The position numbers were made by a program, and so were the translations under genes. From assembly GCA_964428815.1 (NCBI GenBank), contig CAYSAC010000005.1:1-39478 (forward strand): a stretch of DNA of 39,478 bases, given 5' to 3'. Positions 1 to 39,478 of the stretch are shown here, piece after piece (the stretch's first letter is position 1; each line of letters opens with the position of its first letter). Below the pieces are notes generated by a model. The model had not been told where the DNA came from and ran no database searches. It saw only the letters and a list, made by a program, of their open reading frames with translations. The stretch is from an uncultured Acidimicrobiaceae bacterium. Lineage in GTDB: Bacteria; Actinomycetota; Acidimicrobiia; Acidimicrobiales; CAYSAC01.

Positions 1-41
1 GACCCGCACCGACCCGACGTTCGGGCGCTACGACTACCAGA
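1..41. repeat. Terminal 41-bp exact overlap (left copy), circular assembly signature
   Basis: GACCCGCACC...CTACCAGA at 1-41 is identical to 39438-39478. Confidence 0.97.
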
Positions 42-3625: not shown

Positions 3626-3962
3626 CAAGTCAGTGACTGCAGTGGTTGGCGCCGTTGTCGTGGCCATCGCTGCAGCGTGGTCCGACGACGTCATCACCAA
3701 CGCTGAGAAGGTGCAGATAGCCGTCGCTGGCTTCACCGCGTTCTCGGTGTTCGTGACGAGCAACGTCGGACTGCCCTTGTGGGAGTACTCGAAGTCGATC
3801 ACGGCCGGAGCCTTAGCCGGCCTCGGCCTCCTCGGCGCCTACTACGCCAACGGCAACATCATGGATGGGGGCCTGTGGCTCAACGTCGCCATCGCCACCG
3901 CCGTGGCAGCCGGTGTGTTCGCCGTCCCGAATGGTCCGGAGCGGGTCATCGACGTGCGGTAG
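3609..3962 (+). CDS. Holin (four hydrophobic segments, internally duplicated)
   Basis: YSKSVTA and YSKSITA repeated halves; ends AVPN, typical of actinophage holins. Confidence 0.75.
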   Translation: MLSSYSKSVTAVVGAVVVAIAAAWSDDVITNAEKVQIAVAGFTAFSVFVTSNVGLPLWEYSKSITAGALAGLGLLGAYYANGNIMDGGLWLNVAIATAVAAGVFAVPNGPERVIDVR

Positions 3963-4000
3963 CCTTGGCCCCTCGGTCGACGCCCTCGACCTGCCCCATG

Positions 4001-4030
4001 CAGCCCCTCGGCCTTCGGGTCGGGGGGCTG
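4001..4030 (+). terminator. Hairpin terminator after lysis cassette
   Basis: CAGCCCCTCGGCC-TTCG-GGTCGGGGGGCTG with cUUCGg loop; weak U-tail. Confidence 0.65.
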
Positions 4031-4088
4031 TTGCGCGTCCGGGGTACACCCGTGCGCTACTCCACCTTGGTCGTGTGGAATCTATGTA

Positions 4089-4101
4089 TACAGTTGGACG
4101 G
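4089..4101 (+). promoter_or_regulatory. Putative -10 element for leaderless integrase mRNA
   Basis: TACAGT, 7 nt, ATG 4102; no SD. Confidence 0.5.
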
Positions 4102-5571
4102 ATGGCCATGGCTGCACCGATCACCGCCCGCTGGGTCGCGATCTACCTCCGGATCTCCCGCGACCGCTCCGGTCGGGCCGAGAACGTCGACACCCAGCTG
4201 GGCCACGCCGTCACGTACGTCGAGCGTCAGTGGCCCGGCGTCGCCTACGAGGTGTACCGCGACAACGACCTCACGGCCGCCGACCCCGGTACCCACCGCC
4301 CCGACTACGAGCGTCTCCTCACCGACGTCCGGGCCGGCCGGGTCGCCCAGGTCGTCTCAGCCGACCAGGACCGCCTGACCCGCCAGCCCGCCGAGTGGGA
4401 AGCGCTCATGCCAGTGCTGCTCACCGCCGGGGTCACCGAGACCCACGGCTACCGCGACGGCATCACCTCAGTCGAGCCGGGCAAACGGGCGCCGGGGCGG
4501 TTCAAGTCGGCGATGGCCGCCGAGTACGTCGAGGGCTTGAAGGTGAAGTTGCACGAGAAGTTCGACAAGCTCGCCGATGACGGCCGACCCCATGGCGGCC
4601 GCACCTTCGGCTACAAGCGCACCGTCGACGCCGATGGCGCCAAGACGCTCGAGGTGATCCCGGAGCGGGCCGTAGTGATGCGGTGGGCGGCCGACGAGAT
4701 CCTGTCCGGGCACACGATCGCCTCGGTGGCGGGGGGGATGGAGGCCCGCGGGTTCGGGCATTGGGGGCACTCCAGCGTCGTGGCGATGCTGCGAAGTCCG
4801 ACGAACGCCGGGTTCCGTTCCTACCGGGGGGACCCCGAGTATCGGCGGGGTACGTGGGATCCGATCTTCGACGAGGTCACCTGGCGGCGCCTGTGCGCCA
4901 CGCTCGACAAGCCGCGAGAGGTGCTCCGCCCCGACGGCACCGTGAAGGTGCTGGGCGGCCGCCGGCGGCCCGCACGGCGCTACCTGCTGGGCGGAGGGTT
5001 CGTGTGCTGCGCCCGGTGCGGGGTGCCGTTGGTGGGCCGCCACATCGCCGGCCGGAAACCGATCTACGTCTGCACGAAAGAGCGTGGCGGCTGCGGCCGG
5101 CTCGGCGCTACCGCCGGTGAACCGCTCCCCGACGGGGCGGCAGGTGTCGAGGCCACCGTCGCCGCCGAGCTGCTGGCCCGGTTGCAGTCCCCCGAGTTCC
5201 TCGCCCAGCTAGCTGTGGACGACAGCAACCAGCGCCGCAGCGCCCTCACCGAACAGATCGAGGGGATCGGCTTGCGCCGACGGAAGCTCGCCGGCCGCTG
5301 GGCCCGCGGCGACGTGGCCGACGAAGACTGGGACGGGGCACGTGAAGAGTTCGACGCTGAACTGTCCCGGCTCAACACGGAGCTGGCCGGCCTGGAGCCC
5401 TATGCAGCAGGCATCGACCCGGCCGCGGTCGTGGATGGCTGGGTCCACATGGACCTGGCCGAACGACGCCAGGTTGTGGACCGGTGCATCGAGCGGGTCG
5501 AGGTCCGTCCGGCCACACCTGGGGTCAAGTTCTTCGACCCGGCCAGGGTCCGCATCGTGTGGCGGGCCTAG
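4102..5571 (+). CDS. int: Large serine recombinase (integrase)
   Basis: IYLRISRD catalytic Ser motif, RPDYERLL, DRLTR, FGY recombinase domain, CARC...YVC...C zinc ribbon, coiled coil. Confidence 0.95.
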   Translation: MAMAAPITARWVAIYLRISRDRSGRAENVDTQLGHAVTYVERQWPGVAYEVYRDNDLTAADPGTHRPDYERLLTDVRAGRVAQVVSADQDRLTRQPAEWEALMPVLLTAGVTETHGYRDGITSVEPGKRAPGRFKSAMAAEYVEGLKVKLHEKFDKLADDGRPHGGRTFGYKRTVDADGAKTLEVIPERAVVMRWAADEILSGHTIASVAGGMEARGFGHWGHSSVVAMLRSPTNAGFRSYRGDPEYRRGTWDPIFDEVTWRRLCATLDKPREVLRPDGTVKVLGGRRRPARRYLLGGGFVCCARCGVPLVGRHIAGRKPIYVCTKERGGCGRLGATAGEPLPDGAAGVEATVAAELLARLQSPEFLAQLAVDDSNQRRSALTEQIEGIGLRRRKLAGRWARGDVADEDWDGAREEFDAELSRLNTELAGLEPYAAGIDPAAVVDGWVHMDLAERRQVVDRCIERVEVRPATPGVKFFDPARVRIVWRA

Positions 5572-23637: not shown

Positions 23638-24164
23638 CCGATTCCTCCAACCTTGTGACGACCCGCGTCTGCGCTCTGGACCTGTCGGTCACCGCAACCG
23701 GTATGTGCGACCGCCAAGGCAACCTCCACACCTTCAGCCCGAAGGCCAGGGGCGATGCACGCCTGCATGAGATCGCCGTGTGGCTCACGGACTGCGTGCT
23801 GAGCCTCGACCCCCACTTCGTCGCCATCGAGGACGTCGTGGTGCGCTCCAGCGCCTCCAGCGTGCTGGGGATGCTCCACGGCGCCGTGAGATGCCTCCTG
23901 CTGGCCGAGGAGGTGCCCTACGTCGTGCTGGCGCCGGCGAGCATCAAGACCTACGCCACGGGTCGGGGCAACGCCACGAAGCCGGACATGCGCATGGAGA
24001 TGTTCAAGCGCACCGGCCGCGACGTCGCGGATGACAACCAGGTGGACGCCTGGTGGCTCTGGGCCCTCGCCAGCGACCTCGACGGCGAAGCGGTCATCGA
24101 GCTGCCCCAGACCCACCGCCGAGCGCTCGCCAAGCTCACCCACCCGCTGAAGGAGACCACATGA
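23634..24164 (+). CDS. ruvC: RuvC-like Holliday junction resolvase
   Basis: ALDLSVTATG, VAIED, KTYATGRGNATK, DNQVDA. Confidence 0.9.
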   Translation: MTDSSNLVTTRVCALDLSVTATGMCDRQGNLHTFSPKARGDARLHEIAVWLTDCVLSLDPHFVAIEDVVVRSSASSVLGMLHGAVRCLLLAEEVPYVVLAPASIKTYATGRGNATKPDMRMEMFKRTGRDVADDNQVDAWWLWALASDLDGEAVIELPQTHRRALAKLTHPLKETT

Positions 24165-24334
24165 CCCTCACCGATGCCCTCACCGTGTTGCGTGACGCCC
24201 TACCGGAGAAGCCGGCCCTCGACGACCCCCACCAGGCCGCTGTGCGGGTGGTGGCCGCAGCCGTCCCCAAGTTCCGGGGCGGGATCATTCGTCGCCCAAT
24301 GGGCGACGAGGCGGGGTTTCCGGGGCAATCATGA
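24161..24334 (+). CDS. Small hypothetical protein
   Basis: AAGGAG SD, ATGA overlap. Confidence 0.55.
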   Translation: MTLTDALTVLRDALPEKPALDDPHQAAVRVVAAAVPKFRGGIIRRPMGDEAGFPGQS

Positions 24335-24391
24335 AACCTACGAAACCGGCGGACCACGGAGCCCCAGCGCTCCGAAGTGAAGGAGTAACCC

Positions 24392-24793
24392 ATGATCACG
24401 CCCACGCGCCTGAGCATCGGCGCAGGAGTCGTCATCACCCTCTCGACACTGGTAGGCGTGGCGGCCCTCATGCTGCCTTCTGACGCTGCACCGACGGGCA
24501 TCAACAGCGGCGAACCCGAGGCGGTCACCACCACGCCGCCCTCAACCTCGACCACCTCCTCCACGACGACGGTGGACCCGCAACCATCCGAGCATCCGTC
24601 TACGCCGTCGCCGGCCGATAGAACGCCAGCCTCCACCTCGGTTCCTCAGCCGGCTCCCGCCGTGACCGCACCAGCGACCACAGCCCCACCCACAACCAGG
24701 CCCCCAGCCCCAACGACCACGACCTCGTCGGCCCCGACGACCACTGTGTTCGTGTGTGGCAGCCCACCTAATCCGCCCTGCCCGCCCAGCTGA
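24392..24793 (+). CDS. Membrane-anchored Pro/Thr-rich protein
   Basis: AAGGAG SD; N-terminal TM; PT-rich stalk; terminal Cys pair. Confidence 0.7.
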   Translation: MITPTRLSIGAGVVITLSTLVGVAALMLPSDAAPTGINSGEPEAVTTTPPSTSTTSSTTTVDPQPSEHPSTPSPADRTPASTSVPQPAPAVTAPATTAPPTTRPPAPTTTTSSAPTTTVFVCGSPPNPPCPPS

Positions 24794-24807
24794 GCCGAAG
24801 GAGCACC

Positions 24808-25155
24808 ATGACCCACACCCGCATCATCGGCATCCTGGCTGTCGCCCTCGCCGTCTCAGCCTGCGGTGGCAGCGACAGCAGCGACCCCGACAACGACGCT
24901 CCCGCCTGTACCGACGTGTTCACCACTGGGCGACCCACCACCGAAGTGGTCGCCCAGTACGACAACAAGCCGTGCATCGACGAGAACGGCGACCGACTCT
25001 CCATCGCCCACATGTTCTGGGACTGCGGCGACGGCACTGCCGTCCACGAGGCCGGCGACTACGGGTGGGGTCGAGACGGCGACGTCTGGCAGGGACCCGA
25101 AGTGCCCAGGCCCCCGAGCACGTCAGCCGACGGCGCCCAGGCGGGCTGCCCGTAA
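24808..25155 (+). CDS. Lipoprotein
   Basis: AAGGAG SD; signal peptide with LAVSAC lipobox. Confidence 0.75.
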   Translation: MTHTRIIGILAVALAVSACGGSDSSDPDNDAPACTDVFTTGRPTTEVVAQYDNKPCIDENGDRLSIAHMFWDCGDGTAVHEAGDYGWGRDGDVWQGPEVPRPPSTSADGAQAGCP

Positions 25156-25160
25156 CCCCG

Positions 25161-26951
25161 ATGTCCAAGTCGTGGGCCGGGGGCAGCACCCGTAGTTGGC
25201 GCCGCACACGTGCCGCTGTCCTCGCCCGCGACGGCTACAAGTGCAAGCTCCGCATCCCAGGCGTATGCATCGGCGCCGCACCACTCCACGCCACCGGCGA
25301 CACACCAGCCGGCCACTGCCACCACGTCAACGGCAAAGCCAACGGCGACGGCGCCCTCGCCACCGCTTGCGCACCGTGCAACATGCACGTCGGCGACCCC
25401 ACGCGTTTTCCCCACCGGGGGACCCCACGGACACCCGCTGTATCTGTCCAAAATCTCTCCCCGTCATCGACCGGTGATCTGGTGGTCCGGGCCGAACTGG
25501 CCTGGGATCCGGAGCGGTTGGCGGCCTGGGAGTGGCTGGTGCCGTTCCTGGAGGTCCCGGAGGACGCTGCGCCGCCGTTGGCGATGTCGCTGCCGCCGGA
25601 GGACGCTGTGGGGTCGTACGGGGCGGAGGCGGTCGCCTGGATCGAGGAGACGCAGCGGATCCGGCTGCGGTGGTGGCAGGCGTTGGCGGTCACCCGTCAG
25701 CTCGAGTACCGGGCGGGTGGGTCGCTGTGTGCCCGGGTGGTGGTGGAGTCGGCGCCGCGCCGGGCCGGGAAGTCGGTGCGGGTGCGTGGGTTGACGCTGT
25801 GGCGGATGGCTCACGCCGACCTGTTCGGTGAGGTCCAGCTCGCCGTCCACACTGGCTCCAACGTGGCGATCTGCCGTGAGATCCAGCGGGGTGCGTGGCG
25901 GTGGGCCGAGGATGTCGCCGGGTGGACCGTGTCGCGCAGCAACGGGAAGGAGGCGGTGGAGACGCCGACGGGGGACCGGTGGCTGGTCCGGGCTACGTCA
26001 GCGGTGTACGGCTACGACGTGACGTTGGGGATCGTGGACGAGGCGTGGGACGTCTCCCCGGACACGGTCAGCGAGGGCCTGGAGCCGGCGACCCTGGAGC
26101 GCTCGTCTCCGCAGCTGCACCTGACCTCCACGGCGCACCGGCGGGCCACCAGCCTCATGCGGGCCCGGTTGCAGACGGCGATGGGGGCGGAGGACCCGGA
26201 CACGTTGCTGTTGCTGTGGGCGGCGCCAGCCGGGGCCGACCCGGGCGATCCGGAGGTGTGGCGGGCCGCGTCGCCGCACTGGTCGGAAGACCGGTGCCGG
26301 ATGATCGCGGACAAGTACGCGAAGGCGCTGGCCGGCGAGGCTGACCCGCAGGCCGATGACCCGGACCCGATGGCCGGGTTCACTGCTCAGTACCTCAACC
26401 GCTGGCAGCTGCGCCCGGTGGTGGTCAACCGAGGGGACCCGGCCGTGTCGCCGGTGGCGTGGGCGGCGCTGGTGGTCGACCGTCCCGAGGGTCCGCCGGC
26501 GGCGGCTGCGGTCGAGTCGTGGTTCGCCGATGGTGTGGCGCTGGCGCTGGCGTGGCGGTCAGGCGGTCACGTGGTGGTGACGGTGCAGGATCTGGCGGAC
26601 CTGTCGCAGGTCCGTGGCGCGTTGAAGGAGGCCGGGTTCCGTGGGCGGGCGAAGGTCGGTGCGAGCCTGTTGGAGGACCCGTCGATGGTCGGTGTGCGTG
26701 CGACGAAGGGGCAGGGGCGTACGGGTGCGGCCGTGGCCGAGCTGCGCCGGCTGCTCGACGAGGGCGTGTTCCGGCATGACGGGAGCGAGCTGCTGACCGA
26801 GCAGGTGCTCGCGGCGCGTACGACGCCGGGTGCGGATGGGCCGCGGATGGTGTCGACGGGTGCGGCCGACGCGATCAAGGCGGCGGTGTGGTCGGCGACG
26901 GAGTGTCGGCGTCCGTCGGTGGGGAAACCGAGGCTCGTCGTAGCGCCCTGA
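25161..26951 (+). CDS. terL: Packaging HNH endonuclease fused in frame to terminase large subunit
   Basis: WRRTRAAVLARDGYKC...HCHH...ACAPCN; LRWWQ, APRRAGKS Walker A, IVDEAW Walker B, STA, WRAASPHW, FTAQYLNRW. Confidence 0.85.
   Translation: MSKSWAGGSTRSWRRTRAAVLARDGYKCKLRIPGVCIGAAPLHATGDTPAGHCHHVNGKANGDGALATACAPCNMHVGDPTRFPHRGTPRTPAVSVQNLSPSSTGDLVVRAELAWDPERLAAWEWLVPFLEVPEDAAPPLAMSLPPEDAVGSYGAEAVAWIEETQRIRLRWWQALAVTRQLEYRAGGSLCARVVVESAPRRAGKSVRVRGLTLWRMAHADLFGEVQLAVHTGSNVAICREIQRGAWRWAEDVAGWTVSRSNGKEAVETPTGDRWLVRATSAVYGYDVTLGIVDEAWDVSPDTVSEGLEPATLERSSPQLHLTSTAHRRATSLMRARLQTAMGAEDPDTLLLLWAAPAGADPGDPEVWRAASPHWSEDRCRMIADKYAKALAGEADPQADDPDPMAGFTAQYLNRWQLRPVVVNRGDPAVSPVAWAALVVDRPEGPPAAAAVESWFADGVALALAWRSGGHVVVTVQDLADLSQVRGALKEAGFRGRAKVGASLLEDPSMVGVRATKGQGRTGAAVAELRRLLDEGVFRHDGSELLTEQVLAARTTPGADGPRMVSTGAADAIKAAVWSATECRRPSVGKPRLVVAP
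25404..25465. other. Candidate cos region
   Basis: Lies between HNH and TerL domains; TTTT...GGACACCCG...TCTCTCCCCG; strand composition flips from C/A-rich to G/T-rich here. Confidence 0.45.
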
Positions 26952-26979
26952 CGAGCGGACATCCGACCTTCGGAACCGG

Positions 26980-26992
26980 TACCATCCGGTTT
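26980..26992 (+). promoter_or_regulatory. Putative -10 element for leaderless head-operon mRNA
   Basis: TACCAT, 7 nt, GTG 26993. Confidence 0.5.
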
Positions 26993-29900
26993 GTGCGTTG
27001 GCCGTGGTCCCGTAAGCAGCGGGTGAACTTCGACAGTGCGCCGCGGCCGCTCGACCTGATGTTCGCCGAGATGTTGCGCTCGTCGGGCACGAGCGTCAGC
27101 CGTGGCGAGGCGCTGTCCGTCCCCGCGGTCCGGCGGGGACGGAACGAGATCTGCTCGGTGGCGACGATGCCGCTAGAGCAGTTGGCGCCCGACAACACGG
27201 TCACCCCGTCAGCGCTGCTCCGCCAGATCGACCCCGACGTACCCAACGTCGTGATGTTGTCCCAGACGATCGAGGACCTGCTGTTCGAGGCGATCTCGTG
27301 GTGGCTGGTCACGTCGACGGACCTGGCCGGGTTCCCGGCCGCTGCCCGCCACTTGGACGTGTCGAATGTGAGCCTCACCCCACCGAAGGGCCAGAACCCG
27401 TCGCCGTTGCCGTCAGGGGAGGACCCGCGGGGTGCGGTGGTGTGGGTGGACGGCCAGCCGGTGGGGGCGTCGCGGATCATCCGGTTCGATTCGCCGAACC
27501 CGGCGGTGCTGCGGCACGCGGGCCGGGAGATCCGCCGGGCGATCCTGCTCGACAAGGTCGCCGGCATGTACGCCGACGACCCGAGGCCGTTGGACTACTT
27601 CTCGCCCGCCGACGGCGCCGACGAGGCCGACGACGACGACGTCGAGCAGATCTTGGCGAAGTGGAAGGCGCAACGGAAGCGTGGGTCGACCGCGTACGTG
27701 CCGCTGGCGTTGAAGTACAACACGGTCGACACGCCGTCGCCGCAGCAGTTGCAGTTGGCCGAGCTGTCGAGGCAGGCGTCGCTCGACATCGCCAACTCGT
27801 TGGGGATCGACCCCGAAGACCTCGGGATCTCGACCACGAGCCGCACGTACAGCAATGACGTCGACCGGCGCCGCAACAAGCTGAACGAGGTGCTGGGTCC
27901 GTACATGCGCGGCATCACCGACCGCTTGTCGATGGGTGACGTGACCCGCCCGGGTTTCACGGTCCGGTTCAACACGACCGAGTACCTGATGCCCAACCCC
28001 GGCGAGCGGTGGCAGATCTACAGCAGCCCCCGTGGCCAGACCGTGATCACCGACGCCGAGATCCGCCAGGCCGAGGGCATGGCACCGGCAGCCGAGGTCG
28101 ACGCCCCAGTCGCCCCGGCGCCCGCCGTCGAGGAGGAGCCTGTGACCCCGCTCGCGGCTGGCCGTCTGGCCGCCCATACGTTCGACGGGCCGAGCCTGAC
28201 GTTCGCCGACCTGCCTCTCACCTCGTTCTCGGTCGACAGCGCGAACCGCATCATCGAGGGCGTGGCCCTGCCCTACGGCAAGGTCGGCACCAAGGGCGGC
28301 ATGCGCTTCCGGTTCCAGAAGGGCGCCCTCCAGTTCGCCGACACCGGCCGCGTGAAGCTTGTGTTCCCCAACCACCCGGGCGACCCCGGCTCGACCTCGA
28401 GCGGCATCGGCAAGGCCATCCTGCTCAAGGACACGGCCGCCGGGTTCGTGGCCCGGTTCAAGGTTGCCCGGGGTGACGCCGGGGACCGGGCGCTGTCCCT
28501 GGCCGAGGACGGCGTCTACGACGGGTTGAGCGTCGGCGTGGACTTCGACATGGCGACCGACACCGGCCTCGACCCCCGTGACCGCTCCGTGATGCTCGTG
28601 CATCGAGCGGACCTCCGTCACGTCGCCCTGACCGACGCTCCCGTTTTCGATGATGCCCGCGTAACCAAGGTGGCCGCGAGCCGCAACCAAGGAGGCCACG
28701 TGGCCGAGACCGAAGCCCCCGAGCAGCCCACCGAGCCGCCGCCTGTGGTTCCCGCACCCGCCCCCACCCCGGCGCCCGACCCCGAGCCGGAGCCGACGGG
28801 CCTGAACCTCAGCCAGGACCAACTCGCTGCTGTCCTGGCTGTGCCGGGCGCCTTCCAGGCGATCACCCACCAGCCCGCTCCGACGGAGCCTGCCGCCGCC
28901 GCGACCCTGAACCTGTCGATGGACCAGATCGGCCAGCTCATGAGCCTTGCTCGGGCCAACTCGGACGCCGTCGGCACCCCCGTCACGGCCCCCGTGGTCG
29001 AGGGGCCGACGGTGGTCGATCCGACCCGGTCCCTGAACCTGGCCGTCACCGAGGCCGTCCCCTATCGGTTCGACCGGGGCGGCAACTTCGTGCCCGGCCA
29101 GGAACACGACTTCTCGACGGACCTCCACGCGATGGCGGGGTTCTCTGACGTGCTCGGCGACTCCGACCCTGGCAAGCGGGTCATGGCCCTGCTGCGGGCC
29201 ACGTTCGCCGACGTGGACGTCGCCGACACCACGTCGCTGAACCCGGCGATCCAGCGGCCCGACATGTACGTCGACCAGCGGGACTTCCGGTACCCGATCT
29301 GGGAGTCGATCTCCAAGGGCCCGCCCCCCAACGGGGTGCAGCCGTTCATCTTCCCGAAGTTCTCCAGCGCCACGGGCCTCGTCGGCGCCCACACCGAGGG
29401 CGTCGAGCCGACTGGCGGGACGTTCGTGGCCACCAACCAGACGGTCACCCCGACCGCCGTCTCGGGCAAGGCGTCGATCACCCGCGAGGTGTGGGACCAG
29501 GGCGGCAACCCGGCTGTGTCCACGCTCATCTTCAACCAGATGGTGCGGGGCTACCGGGAGGCACTGGAGAGCGGGTCGGGCACGTTCCTCAACACCCTGA
29601 CCGCCGCCGCCGACATCAACCTCGGTGTCGCCGTGTTCGACGAGGTCCTGGCCGCGGCGTGGGACATCGCCATCGCCGACCTCCAGTTCGTGCGGGGCTA
29701 CGACTTCGAGATGTTCGCCGTGGAGCAGCGCCTCTACCGGGCGTTCGTGGACGCCACCGCGACCGACGGCCGCAAGATCTACCCGCAGCTCAACCCGACC
29801 AACGCGACGGGCACCTCGTCCCGCCGGTTCTCCCGCCTCGACCTGGCCGGTGTGGTCGGTGTCCCCGCCTGGGGCCTGACGGCCACGCCGGGCGCCGCGA

Positions 29901-30103
29901 ACAACAGCTGGCTGTTCGACCCGATGGTCGTGCATGGCTGGGCGACCGAGCCGCAGCGCCTCGAGTTCCCCGGTTCGGGCGGCGTCGCCGCCGGCCCCGA
30001 CTACAAGCCCGTCGCGTACGTCGACCTCGCCATCTGGGGTTACCAGGCGTTCGCCAACTCCGACATCGGCGGCGTGCGCCAAGTGATTTTCGACGATGCC
30101 TGA
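26993..30103 (+). CDS. Portal - prohead protease - scaffold - major capsid polyprotein (~1036 aa)
   Basis: Portal: ALSVPAVRRGRNEIC, IANSLGID, TYSN, EIRQAEG. Protease: IEGVALPYG, NH, DGLSVG, PVFDDARV. HK97-fold MCP: EGVEP, SITREVWDQGGNP, YQAF. No stop codons between domains. Confidence 0.88.
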   Translation: MRWPWSRKQRVNFDSAPRPLDLMFAEMLRSSGTSVSRGEALSVPAVRRGRNEICSVATMPLEQLAPDNTVTPSALLRQIDPDVPNVVMLSQTIEDLLFEAISWWLVTSTDLAGFPAAARHLDVSNVSLTPPKGQNPSPLPSGEDPRGAVVWVDGQPVGASRIIRFDSPNPAVLRHAGREIRRAILLDKVAGMYADDPRPLDYFSPADGADEADDDDVEQILAKWKAQRKRGSTAYVPLALKYNTVDTPSPQQLQLAELSRQASLDIANSLGIDPEDLGISTTSRTYSNDVDRRRNKLNEVLGPYMRGITDRLSMGDVTRPGFTVRFNTTEYLMPNPGERWQIYSSPRGQTVITDAEIRQAEGMAPAAEVDAPVAPAPAVEEEPVTPLAAGRLAAHTFDGPSLTFADLPLTSFSVDSANRIIEGVALPYGKVGTKGGMRFRFQKGALQFADTGRVKLVFPNHPGDPGSTSSGIGKAILLKDTAAGFVARFKVARGDAGDRALSLAEDGVYDGLSVGVDFDMATDTGLDPRDRSVMLVHRADLRHVALTDAPVFDDARVTKVAASRNQGGHVAETEAPEQPTEPPPVVPAPAPTPAPDPEPEPTGLNLSQDQLAAVLAVPGAFQAITHQPAPTEPAAAATLNLSMDQIGQLMSLARANSDAVGTPVTAPVVEGPTVVDPTRSLNLAVTEAVPYRFDRGGNFVPGQEHDFSTDLHAMAGFSDVLGDSDPGKRVMALLRATFADVDVADTTSLNPAIQRPDMYVDQRDFRYPIWESISKGPPPNGVQPFIFPKFSSATGLVGAHTEGVEPTGGTFVATNQTVTPTAVSGKASITREVWDQGGNPAVSTLIFNQMVRGYREALESGSGTFLNTLTAAADINLGVAVFDEVLAAAWDIAIADLQFVRGYDFEMFAVEQRLYRAFVDATATDGRKIYPQLNPTNATGTSSRRFSRLDLAGVVGVPAWGLTATPGAANNSWLFDPMVVHGWATEPQRLEFPGSGGVAAGPDYKPVAYVDLAIWGYQAFANSDIGGVRQVIFDDA
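28130..28144 (+). promoter_or_regulatory. Internal in-frame start site before protease domain
   Basis: GAGGAGGAG then GTG at 28142, in frame. Confidence 0.5.
28689..28702 (+). promoter_or_regulatory. Internal in-frame start site before scaffold-capsid domain
   Basis: AAGGAGG then GTG at 28700, in frame. Confidence 0.65.
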
Positions 30104-30500
30104 TCTCACCCAAGCCTGCTGGCTGTGGGCTGGTGCCAAGTCGGTCGATGGCTACGGCCAGAAGCACGCCAACGGCGCAACGGTCTCCGTTCACACCGAG
30201 TCGTACAAGGCGCACGTGGGTCCCATCCCCGATGGGCTGGAGATCGACCACCTGTGCCGCGTGCGTGCTTGCTACAACCCGGCGCACCTGGAGACCGTCA
30301 CGCACGCCGAGAACATGCGGCGGGCCAACCTCGTCCGCACCTACGAGCGTGGCGACGTCTGCGTGCACGGCCATCAGAAGGACGGTGTTCGTAGCGACGC
30401 CGGCAGCCGTGGCGGATCTCGCCGGTACTGCAAGACGTGCGAGCGCACCCGTGCCCGCCGCCGGCGAGCCACCGCCGCCTACGCCCTGAACGGAGCCTGA
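30096..30500 (+). CDS. HNH homing-type endonuclease directly after the capsid ORF
   Basis: CWLW...DGYG...VGPIPDGLEIDHLCRVRACYNPAHLETVTHAENMRR, CVHGH, CKTC. Confidence 0.9.
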   Translation: MPDLTQACWLWAGAKSVDGYGQKHANGATVSVHTESYKAHVGPIPDGLEIDHLCRVRACYNPAHLETVTHAENMRRANLVRTYERGDVCVHGHQKDGVRSDAGSRGGSRRYCKTCERTRARRRRATAAYALNGA

Positions 30501-30503
30501 TCC

Positions 30504-30863
30504 ATGGCCATCCAAGCCCTCTACGCGAGCGCCGCCCGTACAGCGACGCCCACAGCGGTCACGATCAACACGCGGCGGGCCAAGGGCCTGCTCATCGTCT
30601 TCGACGTCACCGCCGTGACGTCGACGCCGTCGACGGTGCCCACCATCGAAGGGTTCGACTCCCTGTCGAACGCCTACTTCCCGATCCTCACCGGCGCCGC
30701 TGTGGCGACCGCGGTGCGGACCGTGTACCGGGTCGGGATCGGTCTCACCGCGGTCGCGAACCTCACGATCGCCGACTACCTGGCCGACCAGGTGCGGGTG
30801 ACCATGACCCACGGCAACGCCAACTCGATGACCTACTCGGTCTCCGCCCACCTCCTGGACTGA
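30504..30863 (+). CDS. Putative virion (head-associated) beta-rich protein
   Basis: Position in head module; Ala/Thr/Val-rich. Confidence 0.65.
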   Translation: MAIQALYASAARTATPTAVTINTRRAKGLLIVFDVTAVTSTPSTVPTIEGFDSLSNAYFPILTGAAVATAVRTVYRVGIGLTAVANLTIADYLADQVRVTMTHGNANSMTYSVSAHLLD

Positions 30864-30872
30864 GGACACCAC

Positions 30873-31250
30873 ATGCCTGATACCGAGATCATGATCGCCC
30901 GGTCCGACGCGACCGTCACCGTCGACGGCGCCGAGGTGGTCGTCCGCAAGGGTGAGAGCACCGCTTTCGCCGACAGCCGGATCGTGCGCGACAACCCCGA
31001 CCTGTGGACCCTGTTCGAGGCCCACCACGAGGACGACGCGGACCCCGACGAGACCGTCGAGGCCGGCGACAGCGAGGGGCACACCGTGTCGACGGGCGAC
31101 GTCACCTCGCTGACCACCGACCCCGTCGCCCACACCGAGCCCTCCCCGGCCGACGTCCGCGCCTGGGCCCGCACCGAGGGCATCAACGTCCCCGCCCGCG
31201 GCCCCATCCCCGACGCCGTCGTGGCGCGCTACAAGGCCGCCCAGGAGTAG
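30873..31250 (+). CDS. Head-module protein with C-terminal Lsr2-like DNA-binding domain
   Basis: ADVRAWARTEGINVPARGPIPDAVVARYKAA. Confidence 0.8.
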   Translation: MPDTEIMIARSDATVTVDGAEVVVRKGESTAFADSRIVRDNPDLWTLFEAHHEDDADPDETVEAGDSEGHTVSTGDVTSLTTDPVAHTEPSPADVRAWARTEGINVPARGPIPDAVVARYKAAQE

Positions 31251-31252
31251 CA

Positions 31253-31849
31253 GTGGGGTGGGCCCCGGACTATGCGACGTCGACCGAGCTCGGCGGGTAC
31301 CTCCGCATCGACGACCTCGACGACGACGTAGAGGCGGCCCTTGCCGTGGCCGCGGCCAGCCGGGCGATCGACGACCACACCAACCGCCAGTTCGGTCTGC
31401 TCGACGCGCCTGAGGCCCGGTTGTACACCGCCCGCTACGACTACGATCGCCGGACCTGGGTCGTGGATGTCGACGACTTCCAGACCGACACCGGGCTGGT
31501 GGTCACGGTCGACGGCGACCCGGTGGCGACGTTCGACCTCGAACCCATCAACGCGGCGGGCAAGGGGCGCCCGTGGACACGGATCGGGTTCACGGCCGGA
31601 TCCGAGGTGACGCCGACGGGGTGCCGGCATGAGGTCTCGGCCACGGCCCGGTGGGGCTGGACCGAGTTCCCGCTGCCGGTGGCGCAGGCCACACTGCTGC
31701 AGGGCGCCCGGTTCTTTCAGCGCCGCGGTGCCCCGTTCGGGGTCGCCGGATCCCCCGAGATGGGATCCGAGCTGCGGCTGCTGTCGAAGGTCGACCCCGA
31801 TGTCGCGGTGATGCTCCGCGGCTGGGGTCGGCCGAGGGCGTCCGGCTGA
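31253..31849 (+). CDS. Head-to-tail adaptor
   Basis: YATSTEL...AASRAID...RQF, ARWGW..P.PV.QATL, DPDV. Confidence 0.85.
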   Translation: MGWAPDYATSTELGGYLRIDDLDDDVEAALAVAAASRAIDDHTNRQFGLLDAPEARLYTARYDYDRRTWVVDVDDFQTDTGLVVTVDGDPVATFDLEPINAAGKGRPWTRIGFTAGSEVTPTGCRHEVSATARWGWTEFPLPVAQATLLQGARFFQRRGAPFGVAGSPEMGSELRLLSKVDPDVAVMLRGWGRPRASG

Positions 31850-38634: not shown

Positions 38635-39478
38635 ATGCCCACGATCGATCTCCGCCCCGACGGGCTGAACGCCTTCCTCTACCCGGCCAACCCGGGGCCC
38701 GTCACCCTCGTGTGGCCCGCCGACGAGCTCACCGGCCGCACCTTCACGTCGACGCTCAACGCCCTGCCGGTCACCGTCGACATCGCCGGCGACACCATGA
38801 CCGTCACCGCCAGCCCCGCACAGACTGCCGCGCTCGCTCCGGGTCAGGCCGTCAACTGGCTGCTCACCGAGACGACCGGTGCCGACGACGTCGTCGTGTT
38901 GGCGGGCCGGTGGGTCGCCGACGACGGGCCCGCCGCCCAGGTGTCGCAGTCGTTCACCGTGACGGTCGCCGGCACCACGGTCTCGGTGGACATCTCGGGG
39001 GCCGCGGCGCTCGGAACCCATCTGGTCGACCACGACGCCCACGGCGACGCGTTCGTCACCCGGCCCCGCGGGTGGGGTGACCGCTGGGCAGCGGCACTGC
39101 AGGAGGCCGGCACGAGGCTGGTGCGGTTCGGGGTGGTGGGCGACAGCGTCTCCTGCGGGATCTTCACCGGCGACCACGATCTCGGGTGGGTGGGCCGGTC
39201 GCGCACCGCGCTGCAGGCCCGTCACGGCGACGGCGGCAGCGGGTGGTTGGACTGGTTCAACACCTCTACCGGTTTCTTCGGTGGGCCCGGCGGCCCGGAT
39301 AACGGCGACACCACAGCGACCGGGGCGTGGACCGACATCCTCGGCGGCGGCGTCAACGGCCAAGCCCGCCGCCCCACCGTGTCGGGCAACGGCGCCACGA
39401 TGACGTTCCACCCGCGGGGCACGACGATCGACATCGTGACCCGCACCGACCCGACGTTCGGGCGCTACGACTACCAGA
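38635..39478 (+). CDS. N-terminal part of SGNH-hydrolase tail-associated protein (~510 aa in total, ends at 730)
   Basis: AAAGGA SD; open to window end; VVGDSVSCG SGNH block I; absent from ORF track because the stop lies across the join. Confidence 0.82.
   Translation, partial: MPTIDLRPDGLNAFLYPANPGPVTLVWPADELTGRTFTSTLNALPVTVDIAGDTMTVTASPAQTAALAPGQAVNWLLTETTGADDVVVLAGRWVADDGPAAQVSQSFTVTVAGTTVSVDISGAAALGTHLVDHDAHGDAFVTRPRGWGDRWAAALQEAGTRLVRFGVVGDSVSCGIFTGDHDLGWVGRSRTALQARHGDGGSGWLDWFNTSTGFFGGPGGPDNGDTTATGAWTDILGGGVNGQARRPTVSGNGATMTFHPRGTTIDIVTRTDPTFGRYDYQ
39438..39478. repeat. Terminal 41-bp exact overlap (right copy)
   Basis: Identical to 1-41. Confidence 0.97.

Follow-up and report, generated by a model that had tools for sequence, protein, structure and literature searches.

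A fusion of prohead protease, scaffold and major capsid protein is a hallmark of the small actinobacteriophages according to PMC7302621, and PMC5513430 likens such fusions to those of HK97 and lambda. In GenBank the fusion gene of small-genome phages of clusters AN, EE, CW, DM, AX, FE and RRH1 is named 'major capsid and protease fusion protein', and the deposited relatives of the gene described here are Arthrobacter, Microbacterium, Gordonia and Curtobacterium phages of 15-17 kb. That gene occupies positions 26993 to 30103 of a 39,478-nucleotide stretch of DNA (the window), which is the whole of contig C5 (CAYSAC010000005.1) of a 73%-complete metagenome-assembled genome (MAG) of an uncultured Acidimicrobiaceae bacterium. 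It is homologous to the actinobacteriophage fusions, with tblastn identities of 26-35% over the portal and protease parts, and agrees with them in encoding an S78 protease, a scaffold and an HK97 capsid in this order within a single frame (PMC7302621 and PMC5513430). A Shine-Dalgarno (SD) sequence with an in-frame ATG past the protease C-terminal motif, the counterpart of a site in the window gene, is likewise common to all five cultured phages examined. In the actinobacteriophages, however, the portal has a separate gene whose stop overlaps the start of the fusion gene, whereas in the window the portal lies in the same frame with no intervening stop.

Protease-scaffold-capsid fusions and nested protease/scaffold genes are thus known, while our survey of a collection of open-access papers found no report of a portal fused to protease and capsid, nor of an internal start in protease-capsid fusions. 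Neither an internal start nor fusion of the portal to the protease-capsid gene is mentioned in the passages covered of PMC7302621 and PMC5513430. Among 203 matching deposited phage records, none covers at least 80% of the query in one place. Here we describe the portal-protease-scaffold-capsid gene of the window and its homologues. The comparative evidence makes it likely that the gene yields two co-terminal products, a rare full-length polyprotein from a leaderless start and an abundant scaffold-capsid protein from a nested start led by an SD sequence.

Results

A single reading frame encodes portal, protease, scaffold and capsid parts

The polyprotein gene (26993..30103, forward strand, as are all features below unless stated; 1036 codons plus stop) lies in a single stop-free open reading frame (ORF) of 1071 amino acids at 26888..30103. 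Both the homologues and the gene call in the database (P0001, 1036 amino acids) match a start at the GTG at 26993, which is preceded by a weak SD sequence or none. Residue numbers count from this GTG unless the 1071-residue numbering, which is higher by 35, is indicated. Because the G+C content is 69%, a long open frame is weak evidence by itself, as illustrated by an antisense ORF of 908 amino acids in the same region (27413..30139). We take the frame as real because domain matches in this one frame extend along its whole length and because the fusion is conserved in homologues.

Pfam Phage_portal (PF04860) matches residues 110-397 (1071-residue numbering) with 61.6 bits against a cut-off of 39.1 (E 9.6e-17), PHROG portal families match residues 228-415, and the portal family profile matches PDB 3kdr, an HK97-family portal (E 9.6e-17). 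In the same numbering, phrog_80 (head maturation protease) matches residues 443-601 (E 8e-7) and phrog_2263 (major head protein) residues 448-965 (E 1e-29). Pfam Peptidase_S78 (PF04586) reaches 18.7 bits on the window protease against a cut-off of 21 (E 0.002, profile positions 9-157 of 165), and the window matches no Pfam capsid family at E<=0.1. Ser513, in the motif DGLSVGVDF, is invariant in all 69 aligned sequences, each of which also has a histidine at alignment column 460 or 461 (His461 in the window). By analogy with HK97 gp4, we presume His461 and Ser513 to be the catalytic dyad.

An AlphaFold2 (AF2) model of the full chain, based on the 69-sequence alignment, has a predicted local distance difference test score (pLDDT) of 76.4 and a predicted template modelling score (pTM) of 0.43, and consists of three confident modules joined by two linkers. 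The portal domain (27080..28123, residues ca. 30-377) corresponds to the PF04860 match and has pLDDT values mostly of 80-95. It is followed by linker 1 (28124..28219, residues 378-409), which is rich in alanine, proline and glutamate, predicted to be disordered and modelled with pLDDT below 50. The prohead serine protease domain (28220..28660, residues 410-556; pLDDT ca. 90-95) contains the codons for His461 (28373-28375) and Ser513 (28529-28531) and leads into linker 2 (28661..28798, residues 557-602), again predicted to be disordered with pLDDT below 50. A helical, scaffold or delta-like segment (28799..28972, residues ca. 603-660) with two 'LNLS.DQ' repeats then precedes the HK97-fold capsid core (29060..30100, residues ca. 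690-1036). Helices are found at residues 608-616, 620-625 and 643-659 of the full-length model. The two candidate internal starts considered below, at residues 384 and 570, both fall inside the disordered linkers.

The second of these candidates opens a nested co-terminal ORF for the scaffold (delta-like) segment and the HK97-fold major capsid protein (28700..30103, 467 codons). The AF2 model of this 467-residue product, based on 72 sequences, has a pLDDT of 80.2, with helices at its residues 39-56 and 74-91. A Foldseek search with this model returned HK97, Bxb1, gene transfer agent (GTA) and other phage capsids as top matches, with a probability of 1.00 and E values down to 1.4e-9; the HK97 capsid 2ft1_G is matched with E 2.5e-9 and a TM-score, normalized by the target, of 0.75. 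The model thus assigns an HK97 fold to the C-terminal ca. 350 residues. The likeness of the helical segment to the HK97 delta domain suggests a role as scaffold.

In six of the 69 aligned homologues (P0004, P0005, P0008, P0009, P0011 and P0014), the linker between portal and protease contains a helical insert of about 40 residues ('...ELQLVEQIQKIYLGV...AREILNRSGAGL'), which is also present at locus L166. The window is without this insert.

The sequence is present only in permafrost-metagenome runs of one sample, and no RNA run contains it. A second assembler applied to the likely source run produced one contig of 8294 nucleotides across 26900-30150 with 0 differences and a depth of 82.5. This contig, which took the place of read mapping across the two junctions, shows no stop and no indel there; it derives from the same data and is not independent, and it argues against a local mis-assembly. 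An error of assembly or sequencing, or a gene that no longer functions, might be suspected behind the long frame given the metagenomic origin of the contig and the high G+C content, which favours long frames. Against such an origin stand the identical second assembly, the intact catalytic residues of the protease and more than 1000 fused homologues of diverse origin, among them proteins of Micromonospora, Asanoa, Actinoplanes, Kribbella and Saccharothrix isolates, so that an artefact is barely conceivable.

The fusion is widespread among actinobacterial phages and prophages

At a threshold of E<=1e-3, protein searches identified 1107 homologues, the best 120 of which are 911-1098 amino acids long, mostly cover 95-100% of the query and are 50-73% identical to it; precomputed matches to PF04860 are present in all of them and to PF04586 in most. 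They originate from Micromonospora, Saccharothrix, Asanoa, and Acidimicrobiales and Jiangellaceae MAGs, and their public annotation reads only 'phage portal protein' or 'prohead protease'. In total, more than 1000 protein clusters have the fused architecture. At the DNA level, a single-protein search of genome contigs gave 7 loci, and alignment-based scans of viral and metagenomic sequences gave most of the loci. The IMG/VR and metagenome loci are the best 80 of 429 and the best 80 of 302, respectively, scored against the fused query. Together with isolate genomes (Micromonospora, Asanoa, Actinoplanes and Kribbella), nearly all of these loci carry the three parts in one frame, and 107 distinct full-length loci, each one stop-free frame, remained after duplicate removal. 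These homologues and the profile matches confirm that portal, protease and capsid share one stop-free frame, as the sequence-only reading of the window had claimed, and close homologues are not all split. We conclude that the fusion is real and widespread and not an assembly error.

Among 401 genomes surrounding the MAG of the window at class level, only one partial portal match was found, while a search centred on a Micromonospora genome gave matches at E<=1e-50 in 14 of 301 genomes. The family is found mainly in other actinobacterial groups. Two host genomes each carry two copies of the fused gene, namely G401 (Micromonospora; contigs C14 and C16), with copies 53% and 48% identical to the window, and G403 (Kribbella; C1 and C5), with two matches of equal score.

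A less biased view of the frequency of the fusion is given by a search with the capsid part against 1.84 billion representatives at 50% identity, the best 150 matches of which comprise 60 proteins of triple-fusion length, 54 of protease-capsid length, 14 of capsid-only length and 22 fragments or others. Of 42 loci seeded by two capsid-only proteins, 29 are triple fusions, 2 are fully split, 6 are cut by a contig end and 5 possess a protease-capsid gene behind a portal gene of its own (two of these five are identical). In a tree of the capsid parts, the triple fusions do not form one clade (43 changes compared to a shuffled mean of 43.7); the 'single' and 'double' labels in this tree are faulty, since a length threshold placed protease-capsid proteins of 500-590 amino acids under 'single', and we draw no order of events from it. 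Loci that seemed partial, such as L170 and L064, proved to reflect a one-segment effect of BLAST, L170 being an ordinary triple fusion. At L163 the C-terminus of the protease is deleted and the capsid gene is out of frame; this is a single contig to which we give no weight.

A putative nested start with its own ribosome-binding signal is conserved in the fused genes

In linker 2, at the junction of protease and scaffold, an SD sequence (AAGGAGG, 28689-28695) with a duplex energy of -11.2 kcal/mol precedes an in-frame GTG at 28700-28702. To place this site in the family, each in-frame codon of the 107 loci was scored for being ATG or GTG and for pairing of its 17 upstream nucleotides with the 3' tail of 16S rRNA, and the scores were projected on the protein alignment. 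The fraction of loci with ATG or GTG and an SD (dG<=-7 kcal/mol) within 4 columns peaks at 88% of the 107 at reference residue 568. Elsewhere in the frame, the next best value is 36%, the 99th percentile 30% and the median 0.9%. All 107 loci possess an in-frame ATG (88) or GTG (19) located 5-13 codons past the protease C-terminal motif, 49 of them at +7. An SD with dG<=-7 is found at this start in 100 of 107 loci (93%; median -8.9 kcal/mol), where about 9 would be expected from background. Where the start is a valine codon it is GTG in 19 of 19 cases, compared to 49% GTG among valine codons overall (p about 1e-6). The residues encoded over the SD region diverge (RNQGGH, RDGGTE, QEDQ, KEGET, ADERNQT) and the GGAG, GAGG or AAGG core is constant. 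These signatures suggest that translation can begin internally and in frame here, at a site equipped with a ribosome-binding signal of its own.

The same combination of SD and start after the protease motif is present in each of 7 protease-capsid frames from metagenomes, of which 6 are distinct, and in the five cultured phages, namely the Arthrobacter phage Sandman (L198, codon 160), Penoan (L200, codon 160), Rahul (L199, codon 307), the Microbacterium phage Azizam (L243, codon 166) and Jeanie (L244, codon 276). In Azizam it is the sole in-frame candidate of the gene at dG<=-6.5. Two fully split relatives, L216 and L217, with capsids ca. 60% identical to that of the window, show where this site originates. 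Their protease, in the same frame, ends in '...ARITARG*' or '...ARITLGG*', and the stop is followed by the ATG of the capsid gene (gggTGAgcaATG; gggTAGATG). The fused genes consequently equal the split layout minus one stop codon, and 28700 represents the capsid gene's own start. Both the SD with GTG at 28700 and the scaffold-capsid product with graded initiation had been put forward from the window sequence; the site is present as stated, and its conservation makes the product and the grading well founded as inferences.

A site inherited from a separate capsid gene could also be a decaying relic, with the full-length polyprotein as the only product and portal, protease and capsid released from it by self-cleavage at 1:1:1. 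The split relatives, in which the 28700 site is the ancestral start, agree with such a history, and the intermixing of fused and shorter forms in the imperfectly labelled capsid tree suggests that fusion or fission may be recent and frequent. A relic would be expected to decay, yet the start is kept in every locus and the SD in 100 of them across lineages down to ca. 35% identity while the surrounding residues drift, and no other start signature in the frame comes close to that at 28700. Heads with the T = 7 geometry of HK97 contain 12 portal and 415 capsid subunits, and a 1:1 ratio of portal to capsid would waste about 97% of the portal in a T = 7 head. We therefore consider production of the full-length chain alone improbable.

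The embedded SD could instead act as a frameshift or pausing signal after which most ribosomes coming from the portal start would stop behind the protease and release a portal-protease chain lacking the capsid, with the ATG or GTG being incidental. In prfB and dnaX, frameshifting is promoted by an SD sequence inside the gene. The unit conserved here, however, is an SD combined with ATG or GTG at start-like spacing, including GTG at 19 of 19 valine codons, and in L216 and L217 a gene does begin at this site, behind a stop codon. Inspection of the 107 junction sequences by eye, which was not a formal search, revealed no slippery motif. This explanation is highly improbable, more so than a relic.

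In 53 of the 107 loci, including L001, L005, L038, L046 and L052, the nested product opens with a Cys-x2-Cys-Gly-x2-His-x4-6-Cys motif (e.g. 'MxxCxxCGQxHAxGVxC') within ca. 25 residues after the nested start. This arrangement looks like a small zinc knuckle. The window is without the motif.

The site at the portal/protease junction is confined to relatives near the window

A second SD with an in-frame GTG had been noted at the junction of portal and protease, and the two sites together had led to the proposal of three co-terminal products, the third being a protease-scaffold-capsid chain started at 28142. The site is present as written, with GAGGAGGAG at 28130-28138, an SD duplex of -11.6 kcal/mol and the GTG (28142-28144) 3 nucleotides further on, within disordered linker 1. 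Of the 12 near-relative loci, 8 could be parsed, and 6 of these 8, including the window, keep a GTG with a strong SD. In L166, L038, L039, L042 and L050, the GTG is located behind GAGGAGG or GGAGG (dG<=-9) 26-32 codons before the protease anchor despite differing flanks, and where relatives have a portal gene of its own, the start of their protease-capsid gene lies near the equivalent position.

Beyond this subclade the signal is not conserved. In the column scan, ATG or GTG with SD near 28142 is found in 13% of the 107 loci. Counting any site with ATG or GTG and dG<=-7 in the linker of ca. 50 codons gives 42 of 107 compared to ca. 24 expected, and these sites are scattered 18-63 codons before the protease anchor. 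Linker 1 is rich in glutamate, glycine and alanine codons, which mimic SD sequences. Within a 10-codon window at the homologous place, a start codon is present in 41 of the 79 loci that could be parsed (28 of the 107 could not), with an SD of -7 or lower in 17, while 38 possess no ATG or GTG. The homologous, often conserved valine is encoded about as often by GTC (7) as by GTG (6). Even among near relatives, L117, L163, L116, L119 and L192, three of them additional to the eight parsed loci, are without a 28142-like site.

The full-length and scaffold-capsid products of the three-product proposal are consequently well supported, while the protease-capsid product is unsupported at the level of the family, where the 28142 site is not conserved. 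A third product would be possible for the phage of the window, not as part of the family design, and we judge it unlikely there. The site may be a remnant of, or a step towards, the separate-portal layout whose protease-capsid gene begins at about this place.

The long frame appears to be read from a leaderless message

The start of the long frame has a weaker SD than the nested start. The best SD candidate at the N-terminal start of each homologue has a median energy of -3.5 kcal/mol, with 12% reaching -7 or lower (n=94), compared to -8.9 kcal/mol and 93% at the nested start. A hexamer resembling an actinobacterial -10 box, TACCAT (TANNNT; 26980..26985), is instead located 7 nucleotides before the GTG at 26993. 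A TANNNT hexamer 6-8 nucleotides before the N-terminal ATG or GTG is found in 64 of 101 evaluable homologues compared to 3 of 5658 internal ATG or GTG codons used as control. Of 102 TANNNT hexamers in the 140-nucleotide upstream region, 71 have an in-frame ATG or GTG at a distance of exactly 6 (31) or 7 (40) nucleotides; none has one at 3-5 or 9-10 nucleotides, and none an out-of-frame ATG or GTG at 6-7. A -10 box at such a distance from the start codon is the signature of leaderless mRNA in mycobacteria and streptomycetes, and the long frame seems, from this conserved spacing, to be read from a leaderless mRNA.

A perfect inverted repeat flanks the hexamer (AACCGG at 26974-26979 and CCGGTT at 26986-26991), and several homologues, e.g. 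L059, L097 and L110, possess hairpin-like repeats just upstream of it. The repeat could function as an operator or as a structure at the 5' end of the RNA.

The window is a complete phage genome

The ends of the contig carry an exact repeat of 41 bp (window 1-41 = 39438-39478), indicating a complete phage genome of 39,437 bp that is circular or terminally redundant. All convincing genes are on the forward strand. They include an endolysin (1216-2175), a large serine integrase (3817-5571), an exonuclease, a primase/polymerase and a RuvC-like resolvase. Also among them are the terminase large subunit, followed by the long ORF, and genes for an HNH endonuclease, an Lsr2-like protein, a head-tail adaptor, a tail terminator, the major tail protein and the tape measure. 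The window is thus the 39.4-kb genome of a temperate actinobacterial siphovirus from soil, complete in one contig.

The candidate start of the terminase large subunit gives a gene at 25600..26951 (phrog_9, E 2.7e-26, residues 312-728 of the 24666-26948 frame), with its stop codon (26949-26951) 41 nucleotides upstream of the polyprotein start. An HNH motif considered in the terminase frame (24666-26951) was rejected, as Pfam returned nothing at E<=0.1 and PHROG only the terminase (residues 312-728). Just ahead of this frame or overlapping it, a 115-residue ORF (24808-25155) has a lipoprotein-like N-terminal signal ('...ILAVALAVSAC') and a third-position G+C content (GC3) of 0.87, above that of the overlapping 24666-26951 frame in the same stretch. 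On the other side, the HNH endonuclease gene (30096..30500; phrog_826, E 4e-37) shares 8 nucleotides with the 3' end of the polyprotein ORF. A small protein (30873-31250) with an Lsr2-like DNA-binding C-terminus sits between the head and connector genes. A two-hexamer sigma-70 scan of 24000-31500 also returned one unconvincing terminator-like site on the minus strand.

Discussion

Our analysis suggests the following route from gene to head. One promoter would give an mRNA beginning at the polyprotein start codon, GTG 26993. Ribosomes loading at its 5' end would produce the 1036-residue full chain, while those loading at the embedded SD would start at GTG 28700 and produce the 467-residue scaffold-capsid protein. 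The short product would be the source of the hundreds of shell subunits and the long product would supply portal and protease, each protease being tied to a portal subunit on one side and to a capsid subunit on the other. The two products would co-assemble because the capsid and scaffold parts are common to both. Once assembly is complete, the protease (His461/Ser513) would be expected to cleave the two disordered linkers and to detach the scaffold segment, much as the delta domain is removed by gp4 in HK97. Twelve portal subunits would in this way bring twelve proteases and twelve shell subunits. The C-terminal side of the portal faces the head interior, which fits a passenger that must be inside. 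Nucleation of the shell by portal-tethered capsid subunits, first suggested from the window sequence, would be topologically reasonable.

Several points weigh against this model. The evidence for initiation is comparative sequence only, the SD energies rely on an assumed 16S 3' tail and on an arbitrary threshold of dG<=-7, and an ancestral capsid start could outlive the loss of its stop codon for a time as a relic. The locus sets over-represent fused forms, and the 107 loci were further chosen for a frame of at least 900 amino acids. At the N-terminal start, 37 of 101 homologues lack a TANNNT hexamer at the expected distance, and the sigma-70 scan found no promoter in 24000-31500, a scan that omits actinobacterial promoters with only a -10 box. 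Leaderless initiation can be efficient in actinobacteria, so that a rare long product does not follow from the weak SD alone. The window protease, finally, scores just below the Pfam Peptidase_S78 cut-off.

In its widest form, the model would hold for the whole family, with the portal tied via the protease to the scaffold-capsid part, the portal dodecamer nucleating the shell, leaderless and SD-led initiation setting the ratio, and the cultured fusions encoding two proteins. As a whole this remains tentative and we would not yet expect it to hold in every part. For its last part taken by itself, the conserved nested site indicates that the five cultured phages' 'major capsid and protease fusion protein' genes, annotated as encoding one product, probably encode two. 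Given the conservation of the nested start, the annotation of both kinds of gene, 'phage portal protein' or 'prohead protease' for the triple fusions and a single product for the protease-capsid fusions, appears incomplete.

How a head acquires one portal vertex and how its dose of protease is set are old questions, only partly answered in a few model tailed phages and herpesviruses. The second start kept for the shell protein could account for a yield of few portals and many shell subunits from a single message, and a portal that is the obligatory nucleus of the shell would, if the model is true, give one portal per head and a fixed protease dose. More than 1000 one-chain variants, together with split and half-split relatives, are available for comparison, and prophage copies are present in culturable Micromonospora, Asanoa, Kribbella and Actinoplanes strains. 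A change of one start codon or of one catalytic serine would open portal-nucleated assembly, tethering and control of stoichiometry by start site to mutation.

Other passengers on the C-terminus of the portal have been described in actinobacteriophages, where portal-MuF and MuF-VIP2 toxin fusions are bound for the head interior (PMC7302621). The passenger in the window is the protease followed by the capsid and not a MuF or toxin-like domain. In a separate lineage (L185:926-3796, L187 and G477:C9), we observed the portal in a frame of 957-959 amino acids that ends in a match to the ADP-ribosyltransferase family ADPrib_exo_Tox of Pfam (E 1.3e-13). Protease and capsid are encoded in this lineage by a separate gene with a nested start of its own.

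HK97 uses the same portal family, the same S78 protease family and a capsid fold with an N-terminal helical assembly segment. Its three genes encode the portal (gp3), the protease (gp4) and the delta domain with the capsid (gp5), where the window has one frame. An HK97-like layout is seen in L216 and L217, the relatives in which all parts are split.

In lambda C/Nu3 and in herpesvirus UL26/UL26.5 (for the latter, PMC11565193), the long product carries the protease and a commoner short product from an internal start carries the scaffold, and the shared C-terminal part builds the protease into the procapsid. Full-length protease-scaffold transcripts of herpesvirus are ca. 10-fold below scaffold transcripts (PMC11565193). 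We propose the same logic for the window, with the difference that the shared C-terminal part runs on through the capsid protein, the scaffold here being, as in HK97, a delta-like segment at the N-terminus, and that the long product starts with the portal. The herpesvirus short form has its own transcript, whereas in the window we infer an internal SD on the same mRNA.

Retroviral Gag and Gag-Pro-Pol likewise provide many shell copies and few longer protease-bearing chains from one message, which co-assemble and are then cleaved by their own protease. The resemblance is one of analogy and not of homology. The retroviral ratio is set by frameshifting or readthrough on the 3' side, whereas in the window two initiation sites would set it and the extension of the long chain is N-terminal.

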